Notes under the pieces: generated by a model
Seen by the model: the letters and a program-made list of their open reading frames with translations, nothing else
What the model was told of the DNA's origin: nothing
The model's database searches: none
Source: an uncultured archaeon
Lineage (GTDB): Archaea > Iainarchaeota > Iainarchaeia > Iainarchaeales > VGJJ01
DNA length: 64,000 nucleotides
Direction: 5' to 3'
NCBI GenBank assembly: GCA_964480705.1
Contig: CAYZPC010000004.1
Coordinates: 387 to 64,386 of the forward strand
Position numbers and translations under genes: made by a program
Part shown: piece by piece, positions 807 to 24,824 of the stretch
Position numbering within the stretch: the first letter of the stretch is position 1
Layout: every line of letters begins with the position of its first letter

Positions 807-1184
807 ATGCGCACCAACGAATGGTATGTGACAGTTGGCATGATATTGATTACCTATTTCACACTAGCCCTTCTCCCCAACTATCGATTATTCACCATGA
901 TTATTTTTTCATTTATTTTTGCTGCGATTGTCGCACGCGACGAATGGAGACTCGGCCGCATAGTGCTTCAAACCATTGTCCCGCTCCTAATTAGTGTGGT
1001 TCTCCTCTTCTCCGTTGCACTCGTGAGTTCTTCCCTCGATGCTAACTCCCCTCTTTCCTCCGGGCAAGCACCCGCGTTCGCACTCGCGTGTATTGTCCTG
1101 TTGTTTTTGAGTGTTCTGATTGGTGTTCCCCTCGCGTGGCTGGGTGCGCAGACGCGGCGTTTTTCAAATCCATCTCCTGCATAG
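807..1184 (+). CDS. hypothetical integral membrane protein (3–4 TM)
   Basis: 125-aa ORF with several hydrophobic helices; its 3' ~140 nt overlap convergently with the 3' end of the 1252-aa gene, so one of the two ends may be mis-called. Confidence 0.3.
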   Translation: MRTNEWYVTVGMILITYFTLALLPNYRLFTMIIFSFIFAAIVARDEWRLGRIVLQTIVPLLISVVLLFSVALVSSSLDANSPLSSGQAPAFALACIVLLFLSVLIGVPLAWLGAQTRRFSNPSPA

Positions 1185-8794: not shown

Positions 8795-9376
8795 TTACAT
8801 GAACTGTTCATACGTTGCTGCGTTGAAACGGTAGAGTGCGCGCTTCAATTTTTTTCCATCAAACCGATATTTTTTGAAAACAAATGATTTGTCTCCATAG
8901 TATTTGAAAAAACCGTGATTTACACTCGGGTCCAGTAGGAGCGTTTTACCATTCACGTCCGTCATCACCACGGCGTGCGTGCGCAAGTCTTCCATCTCCA
9001 TGACATACACCATTGCTTTCTCATCACCCATTGCAAACAGTGCGGTGCACACGAGCACAGCTAAGTCTTCATCATCCGACACTTTGTGCGCGAGAATATC
9101 GGTGGGTGTGAGCCAGAAATTGATATTCAACTCATTCGGAGTGTAGCGGATTTCCTGCGTCACAAATTCAAACAATTGCTGTGCCGTAAACAAATAATCT
9201 TTTTCATACACAAATGTTTCAGGCTTGAATTTGGCCACGAGGCTTTGCACGCTCAAATCGTCCGGATTGATGAGGGCTTTAATCTCACCCACGGTGCGCT
9301 GCTCTTTCTGGTTGATAATGTCGGCATACTTGTCGAGCAGCATCTTGTAAAAAACAAGTTTATTGTCGGATTTCAT
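8795..9376 (-). CDS. transglutaminase-like (Cys-His-Asp papain-fold) superfamily protein
   Basis: 193 aa with a candidate catalytic triad in the order and spacing of the transglutaminase-like fold: VLVCTALFAMGD … THAVVMTD … LLLDPS. Confidence 0.45.
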   Translation of the reverse strand: MKSDNKLVFYKMLLDKYADIINQKEQRTVGEIKALINPDDLSVQSLVAKFKPETFVYEKDYLFTAQQLFEFVTQEIRYTPNELNINFWLTPTDILAHKVSDDEDLAVLVCTALFAMGDEKAMVYVMEMEDLRTHAVVMTDVNGKTLLLDPSVNHGFFKYYGDKSFVFKKYRFDGKKLKRALYRFNAATYEQFM

Positions 9377-9462: not shown

Positions 9463-9867
9463 ATGCACTCCCGCGCCCAAGTTGGACTCGAATACTTGGT
9501 TTTCACCGCATTCCTCCTGCTCATGTCCGCACTCCTTTTTGCGTACGCGTATTCCAGCTACACCAATACCATTCAGGTTGTTCAAGCCCAATCCGCCGTG
9601 GATGCCCTCGCATCCGGAATTGACTTTGTGTACGCCAAAGGCCCCGGCAATGCGGTGGTGATTGATGTTAAACTTCCCGTTGGCCTCACTGAATTCCGCG
9701 TCGACCAAAATGTGGTGCGCGTCACCCTATCTCACTACGGCTCCACGTCCACGCTCTTTGCATTCACCAAAGCACAAATCGATCCAAACTATTTGTATTT
9801 CCAGGAAGGACAATACTCCCTCCGCGTGGCCATGGGTGATGCGAACGCGAGCGTGACCAATGTATGA
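9463..9867 (+). CDS. type IV pilin-like protein with a class III signal peptide (Q at +1)
   Basis: MHSRA|QVGLEYLVFTAFLLLMSALLF: short basic N-terminus, a G/A–Q cleavage-site motif, then a hydrophobic helix; first gene of a translationally coupled operon. Confidence 0.65.
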   Translation: MHSRAQVGLEYLVFTAFLLLMSALLFAYAYSSYTNTIQVVQAQSAVDALASGIDFVYAKGPGNAVVIDVKLPVGLTEFRVDQNVVRVTLSHYGSTSTLFAFTKAQIDPNYLYFQEGQYSLRVAMGDANASVTNV

Positions 9868-11582
9868 TGACCTTTTTGCAAGCAAAAAGCTCAACCAAAA
9901 AAAGCTTTTTAGAAAAAAGTTTGATCAAAAAGGCTCATCAAAAGCCAACGCGGGGATTTGCAAAGCAAATCCCCAGTAGTTGTCTGCCGACGCGCGGGGG
10001 CGGAACCCCGCGAGGGCAGGTATCCACTGAAATGCTTCTCGCCGTGCTCATGGTTCTCTTCATTTTTCTCATCGTTCTCCTTTTCATTGAACAAACCAAA
10101 GCCGATGCGCTGCGCAATCAGCAAAATGTACAAGAAGATGAAGTCTGCGCCAAACTCACCACGATTATTACCTACATGAGTTCCAATCCCCCCTACACGG
10201 AAACTATTTTTGAATTACGTTTAGATACGAATGTCATTAATGGAAAAATTTTTGTGGGCGATTCATTTTGTGGATTTTTAGGGCGCGCGCAAAACGTACA
10301 ATTGTATCCGGGAAAAGTCAAAGCATTTGATGTGAATGGGGTGGTAGTGCTCACGAATGATACTAACTATTCTCCACTCACTCCTCCGAGTGGTCCGCCC
10401 AACTCCGGTTCCAATCAGAGCGGTGGCATTTTGCTCTTAATTGATGACCAAAACAACACGTGGTCGAGTGAAGTACAATCCGATGATGCATTGTACGCAG
10501 CATCTGAAGATGACGCAAGTGAAGATCCGGATTGGGTTGAATTTCGCTTCACTAACTTAGGTTTGACGCAAGCCAATGTCATTAATGACGTGCGCTTCCT
10601 CGCTAAACATTTTGAATCCAGCCACTTGGGATTAAACGGAAACAAAAACCGCGTGCAATGCTGGGATGGCGCCGCGTGGACAGACATTGAAGCCTACACT
10701 CCCGTTTTCACAGAAACCTATTACCAATCCGGAAACCTCATCTCGTGTATTTCGGATTGGAATGCTGCCAACTCTGCCAAATTTAGAATGACGTATGAAC
10801 CCAATGGGGTGGGGGACACGATTTCAATTGATTACGGTCGCGTGGATGTAAATTATTCCCAAGTGGGTTCGCTCATTGATTTATGGGAACTCTCAACGGA
10901 CTTGCCGCAACCCGTTGATTTTCGCACGGACATCAACACGACCGCCAACACATTCGGTTGGAGTGTGGGAGATGACGGGTGGGATTGGCAGGCGAACACG
11001 TATGGAGGTTCACTGGCTGCTGTAGAATTTAACGCCGACCCCAATGCGGATGGAAATGCATCAGACTCTCGTGTTTCCACGGACAAACGCCTCGTCATAA
11101 AACTCGGCGGAGGAGTGAGCGGTGCTCCGGCAGACCCGGATGATAATTCTACCATTGGAATGGGCGCGAGCGGAGCCTATGGTGTGCAATTTGACTTGAA
11201 CGCCGACCAATGGACGCTCATTCAAGGGGGTTCTCAACTTCTCTTCACATTCACTTACACGATTGACGCGGACGCGGGGTGGGGAAATAGTTTAGATGCA
11301 GGAGAAGAAGGCTGGGTGAAAGTTCGCTTCACGGATGATGCCAACAATTCATTTTATTTGGGCAGCGACCTCGACCAAAATGTGGATGAAGATGCTACTA
11401 ATGAAATTTGGTGGAGTTATCAACCAACTGACGACACGGGATTTTTCTATGAAGATGTGTCTGCGTACGCTTCGGGCGCGGGAACATATTACATTGACAT
11501 TGGTGGCGGTCTCTCGGATTGGGATAATATTCGTGAAGGACTGGGAATCTATATAGACAACATCAACCTGGTGGTGATCTAA
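9864..11582 (+). CDS. large (572 aa) pilin-like protein with an internal class III signal motif
   Basis: ATGA start/stop overlap with the upstream gene; motif PRG|QVSTEMLLAVLMVLFIFLIVLLF lies 55 aa from the only upstream ATG; the rest is a Thr/Asn/Asp/Gly-rich β-type extracellular region. Confidence 0.5.
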   Translation: MMTFLQAKSSTKKSFLEKSLIKKAHQKPTRGFAKQIPSSCLPTRGGGTPRGQVSTEMLLAVLMVLFIFLIVLLFIEQTKADALRNQQNVQEDEVCAKLTTIITYMSSNPPYTETIFELRLDTNVINGKIFVGDSFCGFLGRAQNVQLYPGKVKAFDVNGVVVLTNDTNYSPLTPPSGPPNSGSNQSGGILLLIDDQNNTWSSEVQSDDALYAASEDDASEDPDWVEFRFTNLGLTQANVINDVRFLAKHFESSHLGLNGNKNRVQCWDGAAWTDIEAYTPVFTETYYQSGNLISCISDWNAANSAKFRMTYEPNGVGDTISIDYGRVDVNYSQVGSLIDLWELSTDLPQPVDFRTDINTTANTFGWSVGDDGWDWQANTYGGSLAAVEFNADPNADGNASDSRVSTDKRLVIKLGGGVSGAPADPDDNSTIGMGASGAYGVQFDLNADQWTLIQGGSQLLFTFTYTIDADAGWGNSLDAGEEGWVKVRFTDDANNSFYLGSDLDQNVDEDATNEIWWSYQPTDDTGFFYEDVSAYASGAGTYYIDIGGGLSDWDNIREGLGIYIDNINLVVI

Positions 11583-11583
11583 T

Positions 11584-12738
11584 ATGGATGCTCCCCGCGC
11601 TGCGATTCCAACACGCTTCGATTTGAAATGGCTCATTGGTCCATTTGCTATTATTCTAGCCGCCGCGCTCATCGCATTCTATCTTCCCACTATTCCTTCT
11701 TCCACGAACGCGCCGGTGACTCCGCTCGAACAGCCGGTGCTGGTGGACATCCCCATTGATGTTGACGCGGCCAAATTAGAAGCCGCGGCACAGTGTTCGC
11801 TTTCTTTCTCGTGTGACCAAGTCGATTGTTTGGAAAAAGTCCTCACGCACATTGATTCGGCAACCGTTTCCATTGACGCGGTGCTGCGCACGCCCGCTCC
11901 CAAAGTATTGCGCGACCATCTTCGACTTGCTATCAAACGAGGCGTGCGCGTGCAACTGGTTCTCGATCCCACTCTCAACCCTAAATTTTATTTACAGGAC
12001 GCTCACGTCCGCGTCAAACAAGTCAGCCGATTTGTAGCCACCAATTTCATGATTATTGACTCATCCATTGTCGTGCACGGCACCGACCCTCGAACGTATG
12101 CGGCTTCTCCCGATGTGATTAGTGTTTCATGCTCTGAGTTAGAACGCGAACCGTATTTAGTTTTGTTCAACCGCGTCTGGCAGGAAGAAAGCAACCCCTT
12201 TGTTTCAGAATCCAATCAAGAAGAAATTGTCCCCGATTCGGCATTAAGTTCTCCGAGCGGAGATGTTTGCACTGAATCCGCGTGCGGTAATGACACGTAC
12301 ACGTGCGTGGGCACCACGAAAGTGTATCAGGATTATTTCTGCGACTCGGGCGCGTGTGCATATCAAATTATTCCACTCGTGTATAGTTCTGACTGCGGAT
12401 ACACCAACCCTGGCTTTGATCCGAATGGAGATCCACTCATTATTATTACGGAAACAGAAGTGGACGAAGGACAAATTGCCAATGAATTCATTGAATTCAC
12501 TGCTCTCAAGCCCGTTGAATTGACAGGATTTACTCTCTTGAGAAATAATAACACGCTCATCACATTCACGGAAGCATTTATTCTCAATGGCGCCGCGCGC
12601 GTGTACACGGGACCGGGTACCACAACTACTACGGTGGTGTATCTCGACCAGTCCTCTCCATTATGGAATGTTTCAGGCACCACCGCCACGCTGCTCAACC
12701 CCAATCAATTTGTGGTGGCGGAGAGAACATTCGACTGA
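11584..12738 (+). CDS. membrane-anchored protein with a degenerate PLD-like (HKD-lacking) domain and a C-terminal lamin-tail-like domain
   Basis: N-terminal TM (LIGPFAIILAAALIAFYL); PLD-fold-like segment RGVRVQLVLDP…RFVATNFMIIDSSIVVHGT with the catalytic H and K replaced (A, N); C-terminus NEFIEFTALKPVELTGFTLL… resembles LTD. Confidence 0.5.
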   Translation: MDAPRAAIPTRFDLKWLIGPFAIILAAALIAFYLPTIPSSTNAPVTPLEQPVLVDIPIDVDAAKLEAAAQCSLSFSCDQVDCLEKVLTHIDSATVSIDAVLRTPAPKVLRDHLRLAIKRGVRVQLVLDPTLNPKFYLQDAHVRVKQVSRFVATNFMIIDSSIVVHGTDPRTYAASPDVISVSCSELEREPYLVLFNRVWQEESNPFVSESNQEEIVPDSALSSPSGDVCTESACGNDTYTCVGTTKVYQDYFCDSGACAYQIIPLVYSSDCGYTNPGFDPNGDPLIIITETEVDEGQIANEFIEFTALKPVELTGFTLLRNNNTLITFTEAFILNGAARVYTGPGTTTTTVVYLDQSSPLWNVSGTTATLLNPNQFVVAERTFD

Positions 12739-12747
12739 GGTCTCGGC

Positions 12748-13266
12748 ATGAAACCCGCACGCACTTTTTCTCACTCCTGTTCGCGCGCCCAAGCCACGCT
12801 TCCAGATATTCTCATGGCAACCATTCTTTTTCTTCTCATTTTAGTGGGCATTCTCACCTATTCTCAAAACACTCAAACGGCGGCACAAGACACAGTGGGG
12901 AGACAGCGCCTCGACGGTGTCACATCAACCATCGCCGAATTCATTATCAAAAACCCCGGCACCCCCTCCAATTGGGAGTTGCTCAATGACATTAACGCAG
13001 TCACTCAATTCGGTCTCGCCCAAAAGGACCGGGTGTTGGATTCGCAAAAAGTAGTAGCATTCATTAATTACTCCAACCTCGACTATACTGCCGTAAAATC
13101 CCGACTCAATATTCCTGGGTATGAATTTTACGTCCAACTTACCGGGGGAACGACACTCGATGCGGGACAATATCCTCCCGCCGACAAACCCGTGAGTGTG
13201 GTGCAGCGCCTTGTGACAATTAATGGAATTGAAACCACGTTCAAACTGATGGTGTATGAACCATAA
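12748..13266 (+). CDS. type IV pilin-like protein (class III signal peptide)
   Basis: MKPARTFSHSCSRA|QATLPDILMATILFLLILVGILTY. Confidence 0.6.
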   Translation: MKPARTFSHSCSRAQATLPDILMATILFLLILVGILTYSQNTQTAAQDTVGRQRLDGVTSTIAEFIIKNPGTPSNWELLNDINAVTQFGLAQKDRVLDSQKVVAFINYSNLDYTAVKSRLNIPGYEFYVQLTGGTTLDAGQYPPADKPVSVVQRLVTINGIETTFKLMVYEP

Positions 13267-16200
13267 TTTTTTTGAAAAAAAATCCCGCGCATTCGCGTTC
13301 AGCGCAGACGTCGTCCTCGCACTCATCCTCGTTACCAGCTTGTTTGTTTTTCTCTCCGCTCCCACTCAACCGGCGGCAAAGCTAGAAGAACGCCGCGTCG
13401 CCGACCAGTATGTGGATGACTTGTTTGTAGCACTCGACCACTCCGGTTTTATGTCACACGAATTAGATGTGAATGGGTATTCCATCGCCACTCTTCAAAA
13501 TGTGCACACGCGCGCAACATCACTTTTGCCCTCCAATTATTCGGCGTATCTCACCCTCACGCGTTATCCAGTGGATGTAAACTCCTGCCGCTCCGGCCAA
13601 GATTTCCAATCGTGTTTTCCCGATGCAAACGTTGCTTCTCTTTCCTATGGAACGGCACTCTCTCCTACTGCTGAATTTGTTCACGGCCGCCGCGTCTTTT
13701 TACAACAACAACCCGCGTCGCAGTGCAGCGCCTCTCCATCCGCCGCATCCTCCAATTGGCCCTTCGCTCTTTTTCCGGCGCAAGAACCTTACACCGCGTA
13801 TTTTTCCCACGATGTCAACCTAACATTTGATGTAAATGTTTCTCCCTCCGGTCCCCTCACGTGTGACCAAAATATTACTATTTCTTTGCAAATTTCTGGA
13901 AACACGGGCGCGCGAAAACCATTAGACATGGTCCTCGTTTTCGACCGCTCGGGAAGTATGTCGTGGGATGGACAAGAAGACACGACTGATGCATTTGGAA
14001 TCGCATTGTCTTCTAATGCCGCATTTATCGCAGACAGCACCTCGGGTTTGCGCGACATCAACATCATTAATCCTGGTTTGCCCAACCTACTTGGAACCTA
14101 CAACTCTCCCGGCACCGCGCGCGACGTGGATGTGAGCGGCAACTACGCTTATCTTGCGGACGGGACATCCGGTTTACGAATCGTAAACGTTTCAACGCTC
14201 ACCGCACCCACTTCCGTTGCCACCCTCGATGTGGGGGGCGATTCATACGGGGTTTTCACGCAAGACACACTCACGTATGTTGCCACGTATGGCACCAGCA
14301 CCACCGACCAAAGCAACATTGTCACTGCCAATCGAGATTTAGAAATTGGACAAAGCGCCTCCAACGCCACAGCTGCACAGTCGTTCCAACCCTCGCTTGA
14401 TTTTATTACCGGTGCAACAGTACACGTGCGCCGCGTGGGAAATCCCTCTGGAAATCTCTCGGTGAATCTCCGCTCTTCTCTCTCCGGAGCAGACTTAGCC
14501 ACCGCCACCATCACACCCGCGAGTCTCACGACATCCTACCAAGATATTGAGGTCACATTTCCCTCACTCGCGCAAGTAACGGGCGGCTCCACCTACTATC
14601 TCGTCCTCACCACCACTGCAAACAATTCATCCAACTATTACCAGTGGGGCGGCCGCGGCACAAATGGGTATGCGAATGGAACAGCTTATCAAAATAGTAC
14701 CAACCAAAGCCACGACATGCGTTTCCGCACGCACTACATTCCTGGTCTTATCAAAATTGACACTACCACCAAAAATTCTCCGAGCATTTTAGGAGCAGCC
14801 ACCCTCACGGCACCCTGGCGCGTGTTGGTGGAAAATGATTACGCATACGTTGCAGATGGTTCTGCCGGCATGCGCGTGTTTGATGTTTCAGCAGACACGC
14901 CCGTGGAAATAGGTTCATACAATACTCCCGGAACCGCCTACGATGTGACACTCGATGGAACATATGCCATTGTCTCAGATGGAACATCCGGCATTCGCAT
15001 CCTGGATGTTTCAACACCATCTTCTCCTACTTCGATTGCCACCTACAACACTCCCGGCACGGCCTACGCTGCGCGCGTGGACGCTGGCATTGCGTACGTG
15101 GCGGATGGAAGCTCAATACAAGTGATTGATATTTCCACTCCATCATCGCCCACCTTCTTGCGCTCGTACGCCACTCCCTACAATTACCGTGACCTCGAAA
15201 TCCAAAATGGGTGGGGATTTATTGCGGTGGATTCAAGCATCGAAGGATTAATGACATTCAACCTGTCTCTGGGTCCCAAAATTAATCAAGCCCAAGTAGC
15301 AGCTCAAACATTTGTTGATTTTAATGCGTGGGATTCAAACAATGATCAACTCGGCCTAGTCAGCTACTCCAGCTCAGCCACGACCGACCAAACACTCACC
15401 GGAAATTATGCACTTATCCGCTCCGACATTAATGCGCTTGTCGCAAGCGGGGGAACTGCCACTGGAGATGGAATCAACGCCGCCACGACTGAACTTATTA
15501 GTGCACGCCACAATCCTTCCGCGCTCAAATTCCAAATCCTCATGTCAGATGGTTTAACCAACTCGGGAGCGAACAGCGCAACTGCTGCCATTACTGCTGC
15601 CAACAATGGTATAGTGATTTACACCATTGGTTTCGGTGCAGAAGCCGATGTCGCTGAACTCAACAATATTGCCACCATCACGGGAGGAAAATATTATTCT
15701 GCATTAGACCAGAATGCGCTCATTGATGTGTACAATCTCATTGCCCAAGACATTCAGCTCATTGCCACGGACGCAAACGTGGTTGCTAACATTCCCACGG
15801 ATGTAAATATTGTGAGCGATGGAAATGGCTCCTTCATCAATGGAAATCTCATCTTTGATATCAACACGCAGGAACCCCAACCCTGGACCGTTGATTATAC
15901 GATTATTATTCCCTGCACATCTCAACTTGCATGCACCTCCACCCTCATTTCCGTTCCAAGTCCGGGAACCCAATTCCAATACGTGGACGCGAATGGAAAC
16001 ACCATTGTCATTGACTGGAACGTGTTCGAAACACAATCCTTCAATTATTACGATTTGAACCTTGAAATCGTTTCAGGAGATTTAGTCAGCACCAACAACA
16101 CTGACCTCACGGTAAAAGTATCCAGCGTTGGAAACCTAGACACGAATGCCACTTCCGTTTCATTCTACCAAAATGATCCCTCGTTTGGAAACCTACTCGC

Positions 16201-16426
16201 AACCAGTTCGGTTCCCGCACTCTGCGGCGCACTCAATCCCGGGTGCGTGACTTCGGATTATTTGTTCACGAGCAACGTGTCTGCGGAAGGAGAATTATGG
16301 GCTGTTGTGAATCCTAATCAGACGATTCCAGAATGTACCTACAATGATCGCGACGTGCTATTCTGCTATCAAAATCCCTCCACACAATTTTTCACGCTGG
16401 ATTATTGGGTGTGGTTGAATGAGTGA
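13256..16426 (+). CDS. giant pilin-like adhesin: class III signal peptide + vWA (MIDAS) domain interrupted by an LVIVD-repeat β-propeller
   Basis: N-terminus KKSRAFAFSADVVLALILVTSLFVFL; MIDAS motif LDMVLVFDRSGSMSWDG at ~aa 225; ~470-aa insertion with repeated YAYLADGTSGLRIVNVS / YAIVSDGTSGIRILDVSTPSSP units (LVIVD-like); remainder of the vWA fold (LGLVSYSS…TATGDGINAA…ILMSDGLTNSG…VIYTIGFG). Confidence 0.75.
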   Translation: MNHNFFEKKSRAFAFSADVVLALILVTSLFVFLSAPTQPAAKLEERRVADQYVDDLFVALDHSGFMSHELDVNGYSIATLQNVHTRATSLLPSNYSAYLTLTRYPVDVNSCRSGQDFQSCFPDANVASLSYGTALSPTAEFVHGRRVFLQQQPASQCSASPSAASSNWPFALFPAQEPYTAYFSHDVNLTFDVNVSPSGPLTCDQNITISLQISGNTGARKPLDMVLVFDRSGSMSWDGQEDTTDAFGIALSSNAAFIADSTSGLRDINIINPGLPNLLGTYNSPGTARDVDVSGNYAYLADGTSGLRIVNVSTLTAPTSVATLDVGGDSYGVFTQDTLTYVATYGTSTTDQSNIVTANRDLEIGQSASNATAAQSFQPSLDFITGATVHVRRVGNPSGNLSVNLRSSLSGADLATATITPASLTTSYQDIEVTFPSLAQVTGGSTYYLVLTTTANNSSNYYQWGGRGTNGYANGTAYQNSTNQSHDMRFRTHYIPGLIKIDTTTKNSPSILGAATLTAPWRVLVENDYAYVADGSAGMRVFDVSADTPVEIGSYNTPGTAYDVTLDGTYAIVSDGTSGIRILDVSTPSSPTSIATYNTPGTAYAARVDAGIAYVADGSSIQVIDISTPSSPTFLRSYATPYNYRDLEIQNGWGFIAVDSSIEGLMTFNLSLGPKINQAQVAAQTFVDFNAWDSNNDQLGLVSYSSSATTDQTLTGNYALIRSDINALVASGGTATGDGINAATTELISARHNPSALKFQILMSDGLTNSGANSATAAITAANNGIVIYTIGFGAEADVAELNNIATITGGKYYSALDQNALIDVYNLIAQDIQLIATDANVVANIPTDVNIVSDGNGSFINGNLIFDINTQEPQPWTVDYTIIIPCTSQLACTSTLISVPSPGTQFQYVDANGNTIVIDWNVFETQSFNYYDLNLEIVSGDLVSTNNTDLTVKVSSVGNLDTNATSVSFYQNDPSFGNLLATSSVPALCGALNPGCVTSDYLFTSNVSAEGELWAVVNPNQTIPECTYNDRDVLFCYQNPSTQFFTLDYWVWLNE

Positions 16427-17429
16427 ACGCTCCACTTTGCGCGGACAACGAGGAGTACTATTCACCTTTCTCACTTTCCTCTTCATCAGCGCAGTCGTAG
16501 GATTAATTGTCTTCAACACTAACCTCTCAAACCGCACATCCACTTCCACCGTTGAAATTTCCGTTCTCAACGCCATCAACGCCAAATACGATGACATTAC
16601 CGATGACATTATCACGCTCGACCACCCCATTGGAATTCCATCCATTCACCAGCGCATTCTGCCCTTCACTCATTCCACGGACAAAAACACCATTACTTTT
16701 CTCCAAACCCTCCCCATTGCCAGCGGAAAACTTTCTCTCTATTACGATTTGATTAACGCCTACGCTATTTTCGTCCGCGACCAAAACACATCCCGAACAT
16801 ACGATGGAGTGGATGTTGACATTGACGTACCCAAACCCCCTGCATGGGGAGGCGCTGCCCAATCTGCAGGATTCAACATTCTTCCCCAGTGTGTACAATA
16901 TCGCATTCTGGATACGAACACGATTAATTTTTCCAGCGACAGTACGATTGGATGCGAAACCGATTTCTCAATGCGCACCCACGTTTCGCGCATCGACATC
17001 AACATCTACCTCCCCACAACCACTGATGATTACAACGGCGCCACATGCTCATTCAATGGAACATTCTCCTGCCCGCACGAGGATTTCAACGCGCAGAATG
17101 GTCCATTTATTTCCATATTATTTTTCGATTCCAATTGTACAAACTGCACTCTCTCAACTAGTGACAAAAACATCTCCGGACACTTTGACCCGGACATCGT
17201 GAGCACGATAACCTATGCGTGTACGTCCGGAAACTGCAACTCTCAACCGCTCACATTCACTTTCTCCGATGGTCTCGAAATTAATCACGGCGGAACGGCC
17301 GCGACTCTCTCGATGGGCGTTTCATTTACGGAAAGTATACGCACGTTCTACTACCAAGATGCTAATTATTCCGTCAGCAAGAGTGGATTTGATACGATTA
17401 AAAGCAACGTCGTGGTGTTCCCCCAATGA
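16419..17429 (+). CDS. type IV pilin-like protein (class III signal peptide), 336 aa
   Basis: MSERSTLRG|QRGVLFTFLTFLFISAVVGLIVF; overlaps the upstream stop. Confidence 0.6.
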   Translation: MSERSTLRGQRGVLFTFLTFLFISAVVGLIVFNTNLSNRTSTSTVEISVLNAINAKYDDITDDIITLDHPIGIPSIHQRILPFTHSTDKNTITFLQTLPIASGKLSLYYDLINAYAIFVRDQNTSRTYDGVDVDIDVPKPPAWGGAAQSAGFNILPQCVQYRILDTNTINFSSDSTIGCETDFSMRTHVSRIDINIYLPTTTDDYNGATCSFNGTFSCPHEDFNAQNGPFISILFFDSNCTNCTLSTSDKNISGHFDPDIVSTITYACTSGNCNSQPLTFTFSDGLEINHGGTAATLSMGVSFTESIRTFYYQDANYSVSKSGFDTIKSNVVVFPQ

Positions 17430-18556
17430 GCCCCGGCGATGCTGCTACTATTCTAATCGCCCTCATCGTGACGGGTGCCATTGCATACTTTTTTGTCTTG
17501 CCCTCTCTGCAAACAAATGCTTCTTCCGCATCGGCTGAATTATTCGTCGAAGCTCCCTCCACCACACTCCCCAATCAATCCATCAACGTCACCATTGCCG
17601 CTAAATACGCCGAAGGAAAAACCATTCAAGCCACATCTGATGGACAAGCCAAAACATTTTCATGCGCCACCACGCCGTGCATTTTCTCCACCACGTTTTC
17701 CTATGCTCAACCCGGAGAAAAAACCATTTTAGTGCAATTAGATTCGCTCACGGAAACACGCACGATTAACGTGACGGCAGTCTCCAAACGCTGTCTCGAT
17801 GGCACCGTAGACGGAACGTGTTCCGCGCCCCCATTTTTTTGCGAAAACGCTCAACTGGTTTCCAATTGCACTCGCTGCGGCTGCCCCTCGGGAGAAGAAT
17901 GCATCTCCAACACGTGCACAAAACCCCCACTCACCTTTTCCATTCCTCTTGTTACCATTCCCGAAAATGTTTACACCACTGCCGTGGCGGCGGTGAATTA
18001 TTCTATTCAAAACACTTCCTCATTTGACGCGGATGGATTATTTTTACTCGTTGCCCAATCGTACTCTTCTTCGGAACAACTCCTTGATGAGCGCGCGCAG
18101 CAGATTCAACTCCACGATTTAGCGCCGGGAACAATTCACACGGGAACCGTGTCCATTTTGTTTCCGCTCAACACAACCAGTTTGCGCTTGCGCTTGTACG
18201 ACAACCCTTCTTCTTACCCTTCATCTACTCTCCTCGCCGAATCCGCTCGAGAAAATGTTCGCGTCACCACCGACACGACACCGCCCCTTCCCCCCACGCA
18301 ACTGGCTTCATCTTCCTCTGCCGGAGAAACACTTCTAACATGGACCGCATCCCCTTCCTCGGATGTAAAAAAATATATCATCTTTCAAGAAAACTTTTCC
18401 AACGGGGGATTCACCACCTATTCTACCGCGGGAGAAACCACCTCCACCCAGTTTTCTATTTCTTCTCCATCCTCTCCACTCGCCTACGTGGTTCGTGCCA
18501 TAGATGGTGCGGGAAACCAGAGTGAACCCACCTCTCCTGTGGTCGTTTCCTCTTAG
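17426..18556 (+). CDS. membrane-anchored protein with a Cys-rich segment and a C-terminal fibronectin type III-like domain
   Basis: N-terminal TM (ATILIALIVTGAIAYFFVL); Cys cluster CLDGTVDGTCSAPPFFCENAQLVSNCTRCGCPSGEECISNTC; FN3-like C-terminus (PPTQLASSSSAGETLLTWTASPSSDVKKYIIFQE…YVVRAIDGAGNQSEP); ATGA overlap with the upstream gene. Confidence 0.55.
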   Translation: MSPGDAATILIALIVTGAIAYFFVLPSLQTNASSASAELFVEAPSTTLPNQSINVTIAAKYAEGKTIQATSDGQAKTFSCATTPCIFSTTFSYAQPGEKTILVQLDSLTETRTINVTAVSKRCLDGTVDGTCSAPPFFCENAQLVSNCTRCGCPSGEECISNTCTKPPLTFSIPLVTIPENVYTTAVAAVNYSIQNTSSFDADGLFLLVAQSYSSSEQLLDERAQQIQLHDLAPGTIHTGTVSILFPLNTTSLRLRLYDNPSSYPSSTLLAESARENVRVTTDTTPPLPPTQLASSSSAGETLLTWTASPSSDVKKYIIFQENFSNGGFTTYSTAGETTSTQFSISSPSSPLAYVVRAIDGAGNQSEPTSPVVVSS

Positions 18557-18585
18557 GTTAAATACTCTAACTCATTTTTTCGGGC

Positions 18586-19197
18586 ATGGCCGACGCTCCC
18601 CCTGCCAGACCTGGATTATTTGCCGGGCTCGCCAAAATTCTTCATCTGCACCAGCTGCCGCAAGCCGCTCCAGGAACTAAAACTATTTCACCTAAAGGAG
18701 ATAGTGTGGTGATGGTGCCTCCCGTGCGCGCACCCGCGTCCTCTGCGAACACTTCCAAAACGCTTCCCACCCGTGCACCCATTCCTTCCCCCGTTTCTTC
18801 ACCCGCAAGCACGATGACTGCTCCGGTGTCGCGTCCAACTTCCCCTACACAACCAGCAGCTCCTCGTGCTCTCCCACACGCGACTGTTCCATCGGCAGGA
18901 TTATCCTCCATGGGAAACACGCACCCCAAGTGGGCCGTTTCACACGAAGTGAATCCTCCGCACACGCACGCACAACCCGGCGTATCAAAAGGAGTCATCG
19001 TCACCGATTACGATCGCATTCTCGATTTAGTAAAAGCCCGCCACCCCATCAAGTTGGATGAAATCGCGCGCCTTCTCTCTCTCAAAGAAGAATTAGTCGC
19101 ACAAGAATTGCAAACACTAGAAGACAATGGTTTAGTTGACGTGAAATATCCTGCATTTGGAGAACCACTCATCTATTTCAAAACACCCGAGGCCTGA
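18586..19197 (+). CDS. Pro/Ser/Thr-rich protein with a C-terminal winged-helix-like domain
   Basis: Low-complexity P/S/T-rich N-terminal 140 aa; C-terminus DRILDLVKARHPIKLDEIARLLSLKEELVAQELQTLEDNGLVDV reads as HTH/wHTH; sits immediately before the ATPase gene. Confidence 0.4.
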   Translation: MADAPPARPGLFAGLAKILHLHQLPQAAPGTKTISPKGDSVVMVPPVRAPASSANTSKTLPTRAPIPSPVSSPASTMTAPVSRPTSPTQPAAPRALPHATVPSAGLSSMGNTHPKWAVSHEVNPPHTHAQPGVSKGVIVTDYDRILDLVKARHPIKLDEIARLLSLKEELVAQELQTLEDNGLVDVKYPAFGEPLIYFKTPEA

Positions 19198-19200
19198 CGC

Positions 19201-20691
19201 ATGACATTCCAACGCATCGAAACGTATCCCATTCAAGCGGACATCACGGTGAGTGTGGACATTGGAAAAGATGACGTGGAGTTCGTCAAACGATACATTT
19301 TGCACACGCCCGAGTTTGGACTCGGAACGCGAGCGATGCTAAACGATTTGAAATCACGCATCGTGACAGAAGTAAACATCTCCTCCGAAAAAATGCTCGA
19401 TGCCAAATTTGTCGCCGAACTCAAAAAAACGTTTCACGAAAAAGCAGCCGTGCTCCTCGCGCGCGAACTCCCCGAACTCACGCAAGACGCGCGAGATCAA
19501 CTCTCCTCTGTCATTCTTAATGAAATGGTGGGACTGGGTCCCATTGAATTTCTCCTCGCGGATGGAAACCTCGAAGAAATTGTCGTGAACGCGGCCACAG
19601 AACCTGTGTGGGTGTATCACAAAAAACATGGCTGGTTGAAAACAAACATCATCATTACTCCAGAAGCCGAGATTCAAAATTACGCTAGCATCATTGCCCG
19701 CCGCGTTGGAAAACAAGTCACGGTGCTCAATCCCCTTCTCGATGCACACTTAGTCACAGGAGACCGTGCCAACTCCACACTCTTTCCAATTTCCTCGCGC
19801 GGAAACACGATTACTATTCGTCGTTTTCGCCGCGACCCGTGGACGGTAACCGATTTCATTGACACCAAAACATCCAACGCGGCATCCATGGCCATGCTCT
19901 GGCTCGCCATGGAATACGAACTAAACATCATTGTGTCCGGTGGAACTGGATCGGGAAAAACAACTCTCCTCAACGTCATGCTCCCATTCATACAGCCTAA
20001 CCAGCGTGTGCTAACCATTGAAGACACGCGCGAATTACAATTGCCTGACTTCCTGCACTGGGTCCCCATGACCACGCGCGAACCCAACTCCGAAGGAAAG
20101 GGCGGCGTGGGCATGCTTGATTTGCTCGTGAACTCCCTGCGAATGCGACCGGACCGAATCATTGTAGGTGAAATTCGTCGTCAGAGGGAAGCTGAAGTCA
20201 TGTTTGAAGCCATGCACACTGGACACTCGGTTTACGCGACGGTGCACGCCAACACCGCCGATGAAACCATTACGCGATTAGTAAGTCCGCCGATTGAAAT
20301 TCCCCCCTCTCTCTTAGAGGCCGTGCACTTGAACGTGGTCATGTTCCGTAATCGAAGATTAGGAGTGCGCCGTATCCTCCAACTTGCCGAATTCGTTCCT
20401 CAAAAAGCGGGAAGCGAAGGAAAAATACAAATCAAACCAAACATTTTGTACCGCTGGAGAGCATCCACGGACACTATTGAAAAATACGCGGAAAGTATTC
20501 GATTGTTTGATGAATTAGGCTTACATACGGGATACTCGGCGCAGGAACTCACCCAAAATTTATCTGAAAAACAACGCATCCTCGAATGGTTAGGCAAACA
20601 AAAAATACGCGACATTAATGAAGTGGGAAAAGTCATGGCAGAATATTATGCGGAACCCGAAACCGTGTTGAAACGCGCAGGAATCAAGTGA
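19201..20691 (+). CDS. type IV filament assembly ATPase (FlaI/TadA/VirB11 family)
   Basis: Walker A GGTGSGKTT; Asp box TIEDTRELQL; Walker B/His box region RPDRIIVGEIR…; 496 aa, typical for archaeal secretion-superfamily ATPases. Confidence 0.85.
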   Translation: MTFQRIETYPIQADITVSVDIGKDDVEFVKRYILHTPEFGLGTRAMLNDLKSRIVTEVNISSEKMLDAKFVAELKKTFHEKAAVLLARELPELTQDARDQLSSVILNEMVGLGPIEFLLADGNLEEIVVNAATEPVWVYHKKHGWLKTNIIITPEAEIQNYASIIARRVGKQVTVLNPLLDAHLVTGDRANSTLFPISSRGNTITIRRFRRDPWTVTDFIDTKTSNAASMAMLWLAMEYELNIIVSGGTGSGKTTLLNVMLPFIQPNQRVLTIEDTRELQLPDFLHWVPMTTREPNSEGKGGVGMLDLLVNSLRMRPDRIIVGEIRRQREAEVMFEAMHTGHSVYATVHANTADETITRLVSPPIEIPPSLLEAVHLNVVMFRNRRLGVRRILQLAEFVPQKAGSEGKIQIKPNILYRWRASTDTIEKYAESIRLFDELGLHTGYSAQELTQNLSEKQRILEWLGKQKIRDINEVGKVMAEYYAEPETVLKRAGIK

Positions 20692-20801
20692 GGTCTGCGC
20701 ATGATTGCACACTTAAACATCGGCCTTTTTTGCTTCGCAAAAAACCCCGGGGAAAATTTTGCATGTGTTTTGCATTACCTGTTCAAGTGGAGTGATCGTT
20801 C

Positions 20802-21695
20802 ATGATTGCACACTTTAACATGCCCCTGAATGTGCTGCCCATGCCCATGCTCCGATGGGCGAGCAAACATTTGCTTGGACTCGGCACCCAATTTGGAAAA
20901 CTCATGCCGCTCTCCGACAGCGACATGAAAAAAGCCGAAATACCCATGTCGGCAAAAGAATACTCCACCATGAGCCTCGTGATTGTTATTTTTTATTTCA
21001 TCTTTTTCGGATTCCTATTTTTTGTCATGACATTCCGATTATTTTCAAGTCTGGACATTCTTCTCCCATTAGGAGTTAGCTTTCTTTTTTCTATTTTAGT
21101 ATTAGTCCAACTCATCACATTTCCCATTATTCGCGTCACCAAAAAAGTCCGAGACTTAGACCGAAATCTCGTGTTTGCCCTGCGCACCATTCTCGTACAG
21201 CTTCGCTCGGGAGTAAGTTTGTTTGAATCCATGAAACTAGTGGGAGAAGGAAACTACGGCGCCGTGTCACGAGAATTCAAACGAGCCGTTGACCAAATTT
21301 CAACGGGAACGATTCAAGAAATTGCCCTCGAACGCATTGCAGAGTACAATCCGAGCATATTTTTTAGACGAGCCATCTGGCAAATCGTAAATGGAATGCG
21401 CGCCGGAGCAGACATTACAGTCGTATTGGGAGAAAGTGTGGACACTCTCACGGAAGCACAATCCATTCAAATTCGCAATTATGAAAGTCAAATGAAAATA
21501 CTCTCACTCGTTTACATGATGCTCGGCGTCATCGTTCCCGCGCTGGGAATCACCTTCCTCATCGTGCTCTCCTCTTTTCCCCAAATCAAAATCACCGAAC
21601 TCTATTTTTGGATTCTCCTCGCGGGAGTGAGCATCGCCCAATTCATGTATTTAGGTATTGTCAAAAGCAAGCGCCCGACGCTGCTGGGTGATTAA
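20802..21695 (+). CDS. pilus platform membrane protein, single T2SSF domain (TadB/EpdJ-like)
   Basis: 297 aa with TM helices and a GspF-type motif ALRTILVQLRSGVSLFESMKLV. Confidence 0.7.
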   Translation: MIAHFNMPLNVLPMPMLRWASKHLLGLGTQFGKLMPLSDSDMKKAEIPMSAKEYSTMSLVIVIFYFIFFGFLFFVMTFRLFSSLDILLPLGVSFLFSILVLVQLITFPIIRVTKKVRDLDRNLVFALRTILVQLRSGVSLFESMKLVGEGNYGAVSREFKRAVDQISTGTIQEIALERIAEYNPSIFFRRAIWQIVNGMRAGADITVVLGESVDTLTEAQSIQIRNYESQMKILSLVYMMLGVIVPALGITFLIVLSSFPQIKITELYFWILLAGVSIAQFMYLGIVKSKRPTLLGD

Positions 21696-21697
21696 AC

Positions 21698-22714
21698 ATG
21701 CCCTCCTCGCGCAACGATTTCATTTTTCTCCGCGCCATTATCGAAGCGTTTGAAACAGAGTTCGCCTACTTGGGAGTGCGAATCTCCTCGCGAAAATTCG
21801 TTCTCAACATGCTCATGTTTGCCTTCGCCGCGAGCGTGGGCTCCACTATTTTTACCAGCCTCGTGCTGCGCTGGCCATACTTTTTAGTGGTAGTGGGATT
21901 TTTCGCCACATTCATCCTCGTCATGGGGGGAATCTACATGTTTTTGGACTTGCAAGCCGAATCCCGCGGACGACAAGTCGAACGCGTTCTCCCCGATGCA
22001 TTGCAACTCATCGCCAGCAACATCAAATCCGGACTCACCACGGAACGCGCGCTCCTCGTTTCCGCGCGGCCGGAATTTGGTCCGCTTGAAACAGAGTTCA
22101 AACGCATCTCCACCCGAATACTATCGGGTGTTCCCATCGAGAAAGCCATCATGGAAGTGCCCAAACACATCAAATCAACTCTTGTTGAACGCACGATGTG
22201 GCTGCTCGCGCGCGGAATATCTTCCGGAGGAGAAATTGCGGATTTATTATTACAACTCTCCCGCAACCTTCGCTCCCAACTCACTCTGCAAAGCGAAGCC
22301 CGCGCATCTATCTCCATTTATGTTATTTTGATATTCTTCTCCGCCGCGTTTGGAGGGCCTGCACTTTATGCCGTGTCAAGTTTCATTGTCGAAGTCATGA
22401 GCTCGCAAATAGGAAACCAGCCCCAAATTGATCCAGGTGCGTTAGCCGCCGCGGGCGCACGATCATCTTCATTAGGCGCATTTGTGGGAGGAAGCTCTGG
22501 AATCATTTCCCCTGAATTCATCACCATGTTCGCGCAAATCATGTTATTTGTGGGAGGAATATTTGCCTCGCTCATTTTAGGGGCGATAGCCACCGGAAAA
22601 GAAAAAGATGGAATCAAATATTTGCCATTCGTCATGCTCTGCTCGTTCGGATTATTTTTCCTCATACGATTTGTGTTACACTCCGCATTTGGAACACTCT
22701 TGTTAGGCGGATAA
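21698..22714 (+). CDS. pilus platform membrane protein, single T2SSF domain (TadC/EpdK-like)
   Basis: 338 aa; LPDALQLIASNIKSGLTTERALLV…; polytopic membrane protein; adjacent to the TadB-like gene. Confidence 0.7.
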   Translation: MPSSRNDFIFLRAIIEAFETEFAYLGVRISSRKFVLNMLMFAFAASVGSTIFTSLVLRWPYFLVVVGFFATFILVMGGIYMFLDLQAESRGRQVERVLPDALQLIASNIKSGLTTERALLVSARPEFGPLETEFKRISTRILSGVPIEKAIMEVPKHIKSTLVERTMWLLARGISSGGEIADLLLQLSRNLRSQLTLQSEARASISIYVILIFFSAAFGGPALYAVSSFIVEVMSSQIGNQPQIDPGALAAAGARSSSLGAFVGGSSGIISPEFITMFAQIMLFVGGIFASLILGAIATGKEKDGIKYLPFVMLCSFGLFFLIRFVLHSAFGTLLLGG

Positions 22715-22760: not shown

Positions 22761-23474
22761 CTACACTTGCGAGAATAATTCTTCTTTGGGAAGGACTTCA
22801 ATTCCGTGCGCAGTGATTCGTACGGGGCGGAGTTTGTCGCTGATTTTAGTATCGCGCATTTTGAGAATACCAATACTTCTCACAAAACGATTTTCCACGC
22901 GCGTGTGGTACAAGAGAACAACTCCATCCGCCACATATTCTTCCAATCCAAACAATCCTTCGTGCTGTCCCGTGGTGGATTCGTTGGTGACTATCGTGGT
23001 GACGTTTAATTTTTTCAACATTTTTCCCAAACTCAGGATGCGTTTTCGTGCATCTAATTCGCGTTCAAAATACAAATGAAAAATGACACCGGGGTCGATG
23101 ATGAGCCGCGATGCTTTGTGTTTCGCAACTAAATCCTCAATACTGTCTCTCAACTTGTCAAAATCATACAACTCAACGGTTTGCATGATTATTTTTCCTT
23201 TCTTAATCATCCCTTCCAAATCCCACCCAAAAATAGCGGCCGTCTCCATAAGCTCTTCAGGCTTTTCTTCCAGTGAAATAAACACGCCCGTTTCATTGTG
23301 TTTAGCCGCTCCATTGTACAAATATTGCAGGCAAAAAATGGTTTTTCCCGCTCCGGGGTCTCCCGTTAATACGACTAAATTTCCTTTCGGAATACCCCCC
23401 TCAATCAACTCGTCTAAACCCATGACTTCGGTCGGGGTGCGTTGCACGATGGCGTTGCCCATGACACTTTTCAC
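22761..23474 (-). CDS. KaiC/RecA-superfamily ATPase, FlaH-like
   Basis: Walker A LVVLTGDPGAGKTIF; Walker B-like ASRLIIDPG; ~230 aa as in FlaH; the true start may be the internal MGLDELIEGGIP (23423). Confidence 0.7.
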   Translation of the reverse strand: MKSVMGNAIVQRTPTEVMGLDELIEGGIPKGNLVVLTGDPGAGKTIFCLQYLYNGAAKHNETGVFISLEEKPEELMETAAIFGWDLEGMIKKGKIIMQTVELYDFDKLRDSIEDLVAKHKASRLIIDPGVIFHLYFERELDARKRILSLGKMLKKLNVTTIVTNESTTGQHEGLFGLEEYVADGVVLLYHTRVENRFVRSIGILKMRDTKISDKLRPVRITAHGIEVLPKEELFSQV

Positions 23475-23561: not shown

Positions 23562-23617
23562 GCGATTTGTTACCCTATCCAGCCAATTACCTTTCTTTGC
23601 AAAGGAGGAGAAAAAAT

Positions 23618-24079
23618 ATGAATTTCAAGAAACGAGGACAATCGGCACTCGAATACTTGATGACCTACGGCTGGGCCTTGGTCGTTATTGTAATTGCAGT
23701 TGCTGCATTAGTTGTATTAATTAATCCGAGTACGATTCAAGGAAATCAATGTGACGCTAAAATTGGACCGTTTACAGTTAGTCAAAGTCAAGTGACTGCT
23801 GCAACAACGCAGTTAGTTTTAGTTAATCAAACCGGACAGGGCGTGACATTAACTGATGTTAACGTTAGTGGTACGCACGGTGGTTCAACAACATACAATG
23901 ACACAGGTTCAACGTTTACTTCTGGAACGGTATTAAGCCCTAACCAGACAGTTACTGTGGTTGTTAATCAAACACCTGACATTAACACTGGATCATACAA
24001 TCTAACATATCAGTTGACGTATGATGCTGGTCAGTTACAAGGTGTTACCGCTTCAGGAAGCTGCCGCGGTACAATATAA
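23618..24079 (+). CDS. major type IV pilin (class III signal peptide, Q+1; DUF361-like)
   Basis: MNFKKRG|QSALEYLMTYGWALVVIVIAVAALVVLI (textbook archaeal prepilin N-terminus); 153 aa, Thr/Asn/Gly-rich β domain; own promoter, strong SD, downstream terminator. Confidence 0.8.
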   Translation: MNFKKRGQSALEYLMTYGWALVVIVIAVAALVVLINPSTIQGNQCDAKIGPFTVSQSQVTAATTQLVLVNQTGQGVTLTDVNVSGTHGGSTTYNDTGSTFTSGTVLSPNQTVTVVVNQTPDINTGSYNLTYQLTYDAGQLQGVTASGSCRGTI

Positions 24080-24155: not shown

Positions 24156-24824
24156 ATGCCCAACTCATCTTTTCCCTCGCGCGCGGCAGTATCCAATTCT
24201 CCCCCTGAAAAATCGGCGCTCTCCGATGAACAACTCTCCGAACTTTTACGCCCGGGAAAAGATTTTGAAAATGCGCTCGGAGCATCCATCAAAACGCTTC
24301 CAGCAGGAACCACTAACCTTCTCATCGTGCGCCTCAAAGATTATGCCACCACGCCGCGCGCACTCTTAACCTATTTTGCGCAGGAAAAAATGCCCGGCGT
24401 ATATGTGAGCGTGAACAAACCCTACATGGACATTGTGAAAACCCTCCCAAACAAAGAAACATCCATTCCTCAAACACAATTCGTGGATGCGATCACTGCC
24501 CTTACCGGAAGAGGGGTTGAAGACAATCAAGTTGTCACGTTCATTGACTCTCCACTTGCGCTCGTGGAACTCAACCTCGCCATCTCGGATCGAATGAAAG
24601 GACTCGTGAGCAATCAAAAATTCTTAATACTCGATTCCGTGTCCACGCTCCTCGTGTATAATACTCCTCAATCCGTCGAAAAATTTTGCCACACGGTGAT
24701 TGCCAAAAACCGCGCGGAAAATGTGCTAGGATTATTCCTCATGATTGAATCCGAAGACCATCGCGGGGTAGTGGAAACGCTCGCGCAGTTTGTGGACAAT
24801 GTCATTACCGTCAAACCGCAATAA
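24156..24824 (+). CDS. degenerate KaiC/RecA-like protein lacking a P-loop
   Basis: KaiC-like topology (…FLILDSVSTLLV… Walker-B-like; LGLFLMIESEDHRGVVETLAQFVDNVI) but no GxxGxGKT motif. Confidence 0.4.
   Translation: MPNSSFPSRAAVSNSPPEKSALSDEQLSELLRPGKDFENALGASIKTLPAGTTNLLIVRLKDYATTPRALLTYFAQEKMPGVYVSVNKPYMDIVKTLPNKETSIPQTQFVDAITALTGRGVEDNQVVTFIDSPLALVELNLAISDRMKGLVSNQKFLILDSVSTLLVYNTPQSVEKFCHTVIAKNRAENVLGLFLMIESEDHRGVVETLAQFVDNVITVKPQ

Follow-up and report, generated by a model that had tools for sequence, protein, structure and literature searches.

A candidate modular minor pilin with nested von Willebrand factor A and β-propeller domains in a type IV pilus operon of an Iainarchaeota archaeon

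Domain layout of the 1056-aa protein

The window examined here is a stretch of 64,000 nucleotides (positions 387 to 64,386 of contig CAYZPC010000004.1, assembly GCA_964480705.1) from an uncultured archaeon of the Iainarchaeota, and the gene of interest encodes a protein of 1056 amino acids (aa) within a type IV pilus operon. The open reading frame (ORF) was present exactly as given in a preliminary description of the sequence, in which the product was read as a pilin-like protein whose von Willebrand factor A (vWA) domain is split by a β-propeller of LVIVD repeats. Analysis of this protein and its homologs revealed nesting that is four levels deep, with a pilin-like scaffold holding the vWA domain, the vWA domain holding the propeller and the propeller holding a further, DUF4082-like domain. 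The segments of the gene are as follows.

13256..16426, + strand: ORF of the 1056-aa protein, ATG start
13256..13363, + strand (aa 1-36): leader resembling a class III signal (MNHNFFEKKSRA / FAFSAD) and N-terminal hydrophobic helix, from motif conservation and a model helix at aa 16-33
13364..13723, + strand (aa 37-156): pilin-sized N-module of three helices and β strands, with HGRRVFLQQQP as its last strand
13724..13900, + strand (aa 157-215): entry linker and β segment, in which C157 and C203 are invariant and aa 160-186 form a low-confidence loop
13901..13966, + strand (aa 216-237): vWA part 1, i.e. strand β1 and the MIDAS loop (MIDAS being a metal-ion-dependent adhesion site), LDMVLVFDRSGSMS (D230, S232, S234)
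13967..14293, + strand (aa 238-346): LVIVD β-propeller, first part (repeats 1 and 2 and the first half of 3)
14294..14743, + strand (aa 347-496): DUF4082-like β-sandwich domain in the repeat-3 hairpin YVATYG/GLIKID
14744..15271, + strand (aa 497-672): LVIVD β-propeller, second part (rest of repeat 3, then repeats 4-7, which close the ring)
15272..15769, + strand (aa 673-838): vWA part 2, α1 to α6, with MIDAS residues T734 and D765
15770..16372, + strand (aa 839-1039): two C-terminal all-β (Ig/CARDB-like) domains, from model secondary structure and weak CARDB matches in homologs
16373..16426, + strand (aa 1040-1056): terminal strand STQFFTLDYWVWLNE and stop codon, the motif being common to stand-alone orthologs

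Both of the Pfam families anticipated in the preliminary description were recovered above threshold. VWA was matched at an E value of 7.4e-18 and 65.8 bits (cutoff 23.8) over aa 677-825, i.e. profile positions 18-171 of 174, and LVIVD (PF08309) at an E value of 1.7e-34 and 117.3 bits (cutoff 20.2) in five stretches. As profile positions 1-17 were not covered, the β1/DxSxS part is absent from the main VWA match. A construct joining aa 216-240 to aa 668-839 matched VWA profile positions 1-171 with 81.1 bits as compared to 65.8 bits for the C-terminal part alone; joining of the two halves regained positions 1-17 and 15 bits. An insert of 436 aa (aa 237-672) lies between the β1/MIDAS strand (aa 223-236) and the remainder of the fold (aa 673-838), and the split of the vWA domain by an LVIVD propeller was thereby borne out.

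The MIDAS motif DRSGSMS, also picked out in the preliminary description, lies at aa 230-236 and is intact and conserved across the split, with GGTATGDG at aa 732-739 and LMSDGL at aa 762-767. D230, S232, G233, S234, T734, D765 and G766 were invariant in an alignment of 35 homologs, and the five MIDAS positions read D-S-S-T-D in 63 of 64 aligned family members. The two vWA halves were the most conserved segments of the protein, with mean pairwise identities across the family of 0.64-0.81 and 0.53-0.71 for the vWA pieces as compared to 0.34-0.47 for the other domains. In an AlphaFold2 (AF2) model, predicted local distance difference test (pLDDT) scores exceeded 90 over aa 220-830, strand 223-230 included, and fell below 50 at aa 160-186. 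The modelled chain ran from β1 through an all-β stretch (aa 239-669) into the canonical alternating β/α elements of a vWA domain. This order of secondary structure and the pLDDT values fit a vWA fold that is intact across the split, in which β1 would pair with the sheet encoded 436 residues downstream. Structure prediction, proposed earlier as a check on the nested topology, thus yielded a closed propeller outright and a vWA fold that is consistent with being whole. One homolog from a Micrarchaeota metagenome-assembled genome (MAG), i.e. P0148, has an uninterrupted vWA domain at the homologous position.

Seven LVIVD repeats could be read by eye, and the predicted propeller was seven-bladed and closed. 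The preliminary description had placed an insertion of ~470 aa, composed throughout of LVIVD-type repeats, within the vWA domain; the insertion itself was confirmed, but its length is 436 aa and aa 347-496 form a separate β domain of 150 aa that breaks repeat 3 between YVATYG and GLIKID. This DUF4082-like domain had been overlooked in the preliminary description, as had the nesting of the head in a ~170-aa scaffold and the variable cassette site in orthologs. The domain carries seven N-x-S/T sequons. The version in the 1056-aa protein gave no Pfam DUF4082 match at E<=1; the copies in homolog P0008 matched DUF4082 (PF13313) with 30.1 bits (cutoff 28.4), and precomputed PF13313 matches exist for P0032 and P0042. 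Among the 64 aligned members, the propeller occurs without this domain in 23 and together with it in 30; P0008 carries two copies of it. In P0027 and P0028, which nest within a propeller-only clade (bootstrap 0.90-0.96), the module is located in LVIVD repeat 4 and not repeat 3, and in P0010-type proteins it follows query aa 749, within the α3-β4 loop of the vWA domain. Its presence in repeat 3, repeat 4 and the α3-β4 loop indicates that the DUF4082-like module was inserted several times independently.

With 10 Cys residues that are conserved and a total of 18 N-x-S/T sequons, the whole protein fits an extracellular location. In the C-terminal Ig-like region, the Cys residues 887/893, 990/997 and 1027/1037 are kept in the alignment of 35 homologs; Pfam returned weak CARDB matches for homologs P0026 and P0139. 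Sequence searches of the PDB matched generic vWA domains only, over aa 672-859. Foldseek comparisons against the PDB matched DDB1 and other propellers, the bacterial vWA protein 4fx5 and ITIH1, matches that fit the individual domains and are uninformative on the topology. Family members carry only the database names 'VWA domain-containing protein' or 'LVIVD repeat protein', and our literature search found no publication joining LVIVD and vWA in a pilin, covering adhesins of Diapherotrites pili or describing this family.

A pilin-sized scaffold and a variable insertion site

The leader (KKSRA / FAFSADVVLALILVTSLFVFL) contains a putative prepilin-peptidase site between A12 and F13. The N-terminus reads [KR][GA]/F[AV]F[ST]x[DE] family-wide, followed by ~20 hydrophobic residues that contain the helix at aa 16-33 of the AF2 model. 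With this motif conserved throughout the family and the gene located in a type IV pilus operon, the pilin-type leader proposed in the preliminary description was supported.

A search of 1.84 billion representative proteins with aa 1-240 returned only 126 matches, with lengths of 116-2207 aa. Complete homologs of 168-173 aa (including P0265, P0274, P0279 and P0309) consist of the N-module and the terminal strand; their alignment covers query aa 11-153 (BLASTP E 3e-17) and continues straight at the final ten or so residues, QFFTLDYWVW. One of them, P0274, is encoded in another genome, where its gene takes the very place of the 1056-aa gene within a syntenic operon; there, a transglutaminase-like gene on the minus strand is followed by genes of 134, 117, 163, 168 and 316 aa. 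A terminal [FY][FY]x[ILV][DE]Y[WY]xW motif was found in nearly all complete members of any length, including those of 650-2207 aa, and W1053 was invariant among the 35 aligned homologs. As the small orthologs and the shared terminal motif match only the scaffold parts, the head is an insertion in a small pilin-sized protein. The scaffold was shown to be a pilin-sized domain of ~170 aa made up of aa 1-156 and the last strand (aa 1042-1054). Its last two strands are parted by an inserted head of ~880 aa (about aa 157-1041), which comprises the linker, the vWA domain together with the domains nested in it, and the two Ig-like domains.

In keeping with this topology, the insertion is bracketed at its entry and exit by the invariant residues C157 and C1037, which are missing in the small forms; these two residues may form a disulfide. 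The aa 157-215 segment is likewise missing from the small stand-alone orthologs. A strand at aa 141-151 was predicted in the full-length model and not in a model of aa 1-220, which likewise agrees with the insertion, and the terminal strand would return to the N-module and complete its fold. C111 and C120 are conserved within the N-module, which has no detectable similarity to solved pilins. Twelve library members of 650-840 aa (P0223, P0258, P0264, P0248, P0255, P0229, P0263, P0246, P0217, P0232, P0224 and P0228) keep the N-module and the terminal YWxW, and a pattern search of these twelve found no DxSxSM motif; they may carry a non-vWA head in the same scaffold.

The site directly after the DxSxS motif is variable among orthologs. 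Insert lengths, measured on the alignment after the DxSGSM motif, and insert contents were as follows.

9 aa: no module
114-145 aa: one small Cys-containing β module
~240 aa: two small modules
286-303 aa: propeller
435-452 aa: propeller and mid domain
585 aa: propeller and two mid domains

A bootstrapped neighbour-joining tree was built on the core columns (about 570). Supported clades (bootstrap 0.90-0.96) mix insert classes, with P0139 (two small modules) grouping with the propeller members P0130 and P0133, and P0028 with P0038. In relatives of 1.2-2.2 thousand aa, β1 and the MIDAS motif lie near aa 210-325 and the vWA domain resumes 950-1570 aa later at profile position 16-20. The intervening stretch in these long relatives contains two to three Laminin_G_3 (ConA-like lectin) domains, together with pentaxin-like, sialidase-N-like and clostridial neurotoxin receptor-binding-like domains, all of which are typical ligand-recognition modules. 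The loop directly after DxSxS (β1-α1) was thus shown to be an insertion hot spot. Judging from the known vWA fold, an inserted module would have to sit at the metal-site face, as the insertion site is the β1-α1 loop that bears the MIDAS serines.

Several propeller-less orthologs (P0122, P0128, P0135, P0136, P0139-P0142 and P0146) carry one or two copies of a Cys-containing β module of ~125 aa at the MIDAS-loop site. An example is found in locus L002 at 10001-12247 (DDDCGGGCPELY ... GTWKVYGWNDYPAIDVNVYV). No Pfam match was obtained for this module, which is an undescribed domain. P0137 (40% identity, same architecture; NCBI label 'Bacteroidota bacterium') is probably a mis-binned Iainarchaeota contig and not a bacterial homolog. 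P0159, from an Anaerolineae bacterium, represents a different vWA-plus-propeller arrangement, its uninterrupted vWA domain having PD40 repeats on either side.

The pilus operon and its surroundings

The 1056-aa gene lies in an operon at 9463-22714 (+ strand) that runs p134, p572, p384, p172, the 1056-aa gene, p336, p376, p203, an ATPase gene and two platform genes. The genes of the operon and those directly behind it are as follows.

9463..13266, + strand: upstream operon genes p134, p572, p384 and p172
p134: leader SRA/QVGLEYL
9864-11582, + strand: p572, modular pilin-like protein, leader PRG/QVSTEML
11584-12738, + strand: p384, N-terminal transmembrane segment, weak PLD-like and TrmB-like matches and a lamin-tail domain
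p172: leader SRA/QATLPD, DUF7287
16419..19197, + strand: downstream operon genes p336, p376 and p203
p336: leader RG/VLFTF
p376: N-terminal transmembrane segment
p203: C-terminal match to the winged-helix-turn-helix-like family HVO_A0114
19201..22714, + strand: pilus motor genes, for a T2SSE-type ATPase of 496 aa and for two platform proteins of 297 and 338 aa, both T2SSF/TadC-like
22761-23474, - strand: KaiC-like ATPase
23567-24079, + strand: p170, candidate major pilin, leader KRG/QSALEYL
24156-24824, + strand: DUF7504 KaiC-like protein

Pfam identified the motor genes with E values of 8.4e-40 for T2SSE and of 4.8e-14 and 1.4e-13 for T2SSF. At least four further genes of the operon have class-III-like leaders. 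A set of one ATPase gene and two platform genes is the pattern of the Epd-like 'system 1' among archaeal type IV filaments, which has been reported in DPANN archaea (10.64898/2026.04.22.720090). Comparison with 26 related loci (L001-L026) showed that the gene order of the pilus operon is kept and that a vWA-protein gene occupies the same operon slot in 26 of 26, whatever insert it carries. In almost all related loci, the platform genes are followed by those for the KaiC-like ATPase, the small pilin and the DUF7504 protein, matching the association of KaiC with type IV pili noted by Makarova et al. 2016, where archaeal vWA proteins near type IV pilus loci were treated as regulators.

The upstream genes are more variable. 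Gene p384 was found only in the clade nearest to the window (L004-L013 and L015) and is missing from more distant Iainarchaeota operons. The product of p572 has a pilin-sized N-terminal part, a Pro/Gly/Ser linker and then ~400 aa of β-rich domains; in tblastn searches of distant Iainarchaeota loci, its N-terminal part only matched the slot of a 112-120 aa gene (23-29% identity). This protein looks like a second modular pilin of the same operon. Its annotated start gives an unusually long leader of ~50 aa, and the true start codon may be further downstream. A divergent gene for a transglutaminase-like/CEP76-peptidase-like protein (8795-9376, - strand) lies just upstream of the operon, a position kept in most of the related loci, among them L083 with its minimal 168-aa ortholog; the product of this divergent gene may work together with the pilus, e.g. 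in cross-linking or processing.

The window is archaeal chromosome, coding for aIF2-gamma, aIF5B, Kae1, Rpo7, CDP-archaeol synthase and ribosomal protein S3Ae, and close relatives come from MAGs of Candidatus Iainarchaeum (Diapherotrites). Elsewhere in the window, a 668-aa protein (28020-30026, + strand) with YtkA-like, filamin and Big_1 Ig-like matches is probably another surface protein. An ORF of 1252 aa (1042-4800, - strand) gave no Pfam match at E<=0.01 and falls within a region of markedly negative GC skew (-0.23 to -0.40 over 1-4 kb).

Proposed function, alternatives and comparison with known systems

On the basis of these sequence features and predicted structures, the 1056-aa protein is probably, though by no means securely, a modular minor pilin of a conserved Iainarchaeota type IV pilus, acting as a tip adhesin with a swappable specificity cassette. 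Prepilin peptidase would cut the leader after A12, and the hydrophobic helix would dock with other pilin-like products of the operon into a priming complex that would finally be located at the filament tip. The MIDAS metal may bind an acidic group of the target while the module inserted beside the MIDAS confers target specificity; the target could be the envelope of a host cell, or a surface glycan or protein, and exchange of the inserted module would retarget the pilus. A pilus-tip adhesin had been suggested in the preliminary description, with a metal site that the propeller may modulate. The adhesin role is the best reading because the modules found at the insertion site in relatives are of ConA-like lectin, pentaxin-like and toxin-receptor-binding-like types, and the tip location is presumed. 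Several points weigh against this assignment. How the last strand docks into the N-module and β1 into the vWA sheet, and where the propeller lies with respect to the MIDAS, is deduced from secondary structure, model confidence and homology. Host attachment of Iainarchaeota is itself only putative, and no prepilin peptidase (A24) gene was found among the window ORFs scanned.

A bolder extension, which we put forward tentatively as possible rather than probable, is that the MIDAS loop is a cassette-exchange site setting the binding of the pilus and that, in the propeller variants, the propeller and MIDAS form a joint, integrin-head-like site within one chain. If cassette exchange does occur, the gene would be a determinant of host or substrate range in these ultrasmall archaea, with swaps of propeller, lectin and β-sandwich modules beside a constant metal site, and related DPANN archaea would perhaps behave alike. 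For the recognition of, and attachment to, surfaces or partner cells by DPANN archaea, this gene provides a concrete candidate, having a fixed slot in the pilus operon, a strongly conserved metal site and an adjacent module that differs between close relatives. The architecture also shows the reach of domain insertion, with four levels of nesting and the same DUF4082-like module placed independently in different blades and loops. The concept of 'modular pilins', so far analysed in bacteria, would be extended to archaea, with insertion into the scaffold in place of grafting onto its end.

An alternative is that the protein is a membrane-anchored surface adhesin or an anchor at the pilus base, in which case the hydrophobic helix would stay in the membrane, whether unprocessed or cleaved yet never polymerised; bacterial TadG has been hypothesised to act as such a pilus anchor. 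The lack of a detectable pilin fold in the N-module favours this explanation over a minor pilin, as do the lack of a peptidase gene among the scanned ORFs and the occurrence of TadG-like proteins (PF13400 plus VWA) among the vWA-level matches. We nevertheless regard it as unlikely, as a plain signal-anchor would not need the sequence-specific [KR][GA]/F.F[ST].[DE] motif that is kept family-wide and as the minimal ortholog is a pilin-sized protein of 168 aa in a minor-pilin slot. Archaea are also not known to have a secretin that would exclude a bulky tip subunit. More doubtful again is a role as an assembly or structural component whose MIDAS binds an internal pilus protein, the inserts then being decoration (e.g. 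glycan shielding or antigenic variation). vWA domains often mediate complex assembly, and a constant internal partner would be consistent with a vWA core far more conserved than the inserts and with strict co-conservation of the gene with p172, p336 and p376. The inserts of relatives (i.e. ConA-like lectin, pentaxin-like and toxin receptor-binding-like domains) are, however, typical ligand binders, and an insert in the loop of the MIDAS serines would stand in the way of a constant protein partner just as much as of an external one. The entire head is missing from some orthologs, indicating that the vWA head is dispensable for the basic function of this slot.

The PilY1-like architecture invoked in the preliminary description did not extend beyond analogy. 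An archaeal homolog of PilY1/PilC, with shared ancestry of the vWA-plus-propeller unit, is highly improbable. Both proteins pair a vWA domain with a β-propeller and are tied to type IV pili, and, according to a 2026 preprint, another archaeal subsystem (4A/B) contains a remote PilY-like adhesin (10.64898/2026.04.22.720090), which counts for such a relationship. The propeller here is of the LVIVD type, the domains are nested and not sequential, the protein has a pilin-type leader and the Pfam search gave no match at E<=1 to the PilY1/PilC propeller family (PF05567/IPR008707); the PDB sequence search likewise matched no PilY1 chain. Moreover, orthologs without the propeller, or with other modules in its place, indicate that the propeller is a late and optional acquisition. 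PilY1 homology was rejected on these grounds. An artefact of assembly or gene calling (e.g. a chimeric contig or fused ORFs) was also considered, given that the source is evidently a MAG, and has a negligible probability: more than 50 independently assembled homologs share the split vWA domain and propeller, one database entry is 100% identical, and orthologs of 62-79% identity occur with identical synteny in 12 GTDB species genomes. This explanation was likewise rejected.

By analogy, the candidate tip adhesin would work like PilB, TadG, PilY1 and RrgA, i.e. as a vWA/MIDAS adhesin presented by a pilus. PilB of Streptococcus sanguinis is a vWA-bearing modular pilin whose MIDAS is needed for type IV pilus function and whose vWA module binds host proteins; it is a proven MIDAS-dependent type IV pilus adhesin and has been argued to be tip-located on account of its bulk (PMC8179133). 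The 1056-aa protein resembles PilB in its pilin-type N-terminus, its vWA domain with a complete MIDAS, the 'arms' flanking the MIDAS and its location in a type IV pilus locus. In PilB, however, a canonical pilin fold bears the vWA domain as a graft on its C-terminal end, whereas here the head lies inside the N-module, before its last strand. The two arms of PilB are short, whereas 'arm 1' of the present protein is an entire seven-bladed propeller that itself holds another domain. The proteins also differ in origin, PilB being bacterial and the 1056-aa protein coming from a DPANN archaeon, and the sequence relationship found between them is that of the generic vWA fold only. RrgA, the tip adhesin of the Streptococcus pneumoniae sortase pilus, also has a vWA domain with arms flanking the MIDAS (PMC8179133), but belongs to an unrelated, sortase-assembled pilus type and its arms are small and not whole domains.

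TadG shares an N-terminal pilin-like hydrophobic segment, a vWA domain and a Tad/Epd-type locus with one ATPase and two platform proteins, and the association of a vWA gene with an ATPase gene and two TadB/C-type platform genes was indeed found here. TadG differs in having a contiguous vWA domain, in proteins of ~350-500 aa, and no propeller, DUF4082-like domain, Ig domains or terminal return strand, and Pfam gave no PF13400 (TadE/G-like) match to the 1056-aa protein at E<=1. The likeness to PilY1/PilC lies in the association with type IV pili, the combination of a vWA-type domain with a β-propeller and a role in adhesion, PilY1/PilC being also a mechanosensor; PilY1 is not a pilin and its propeller, of another family, is C-terminal and follows the vWA domain. 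The head-in-N-module topology recalls GspK, the minor pseudopilin of type II secretion, more than PilB, the insert in GspK being a single α-domain as compared to the multi-domain head described here. The integrin head likewise places a seven-bladed propeller beside a MIDAS-bearing vWA-type domain, and integrins are nested proteins, with the α-I domain inside the propeller and the β-I domain inside the hybrid domain, itself inside the PSI domain. In the 1056-aa protein, the nesting is reversed (i.e. the propeller is inside the vWA domain), the site is within a single chain and the propeller family is unrelated. Adhesins with a vWA domain and MIDAS on pili are thus known, and what is new is a four-level nested candidate modular pilin adhesin of DPANN archaea with a putative swappable cassette at the metal-site loop.

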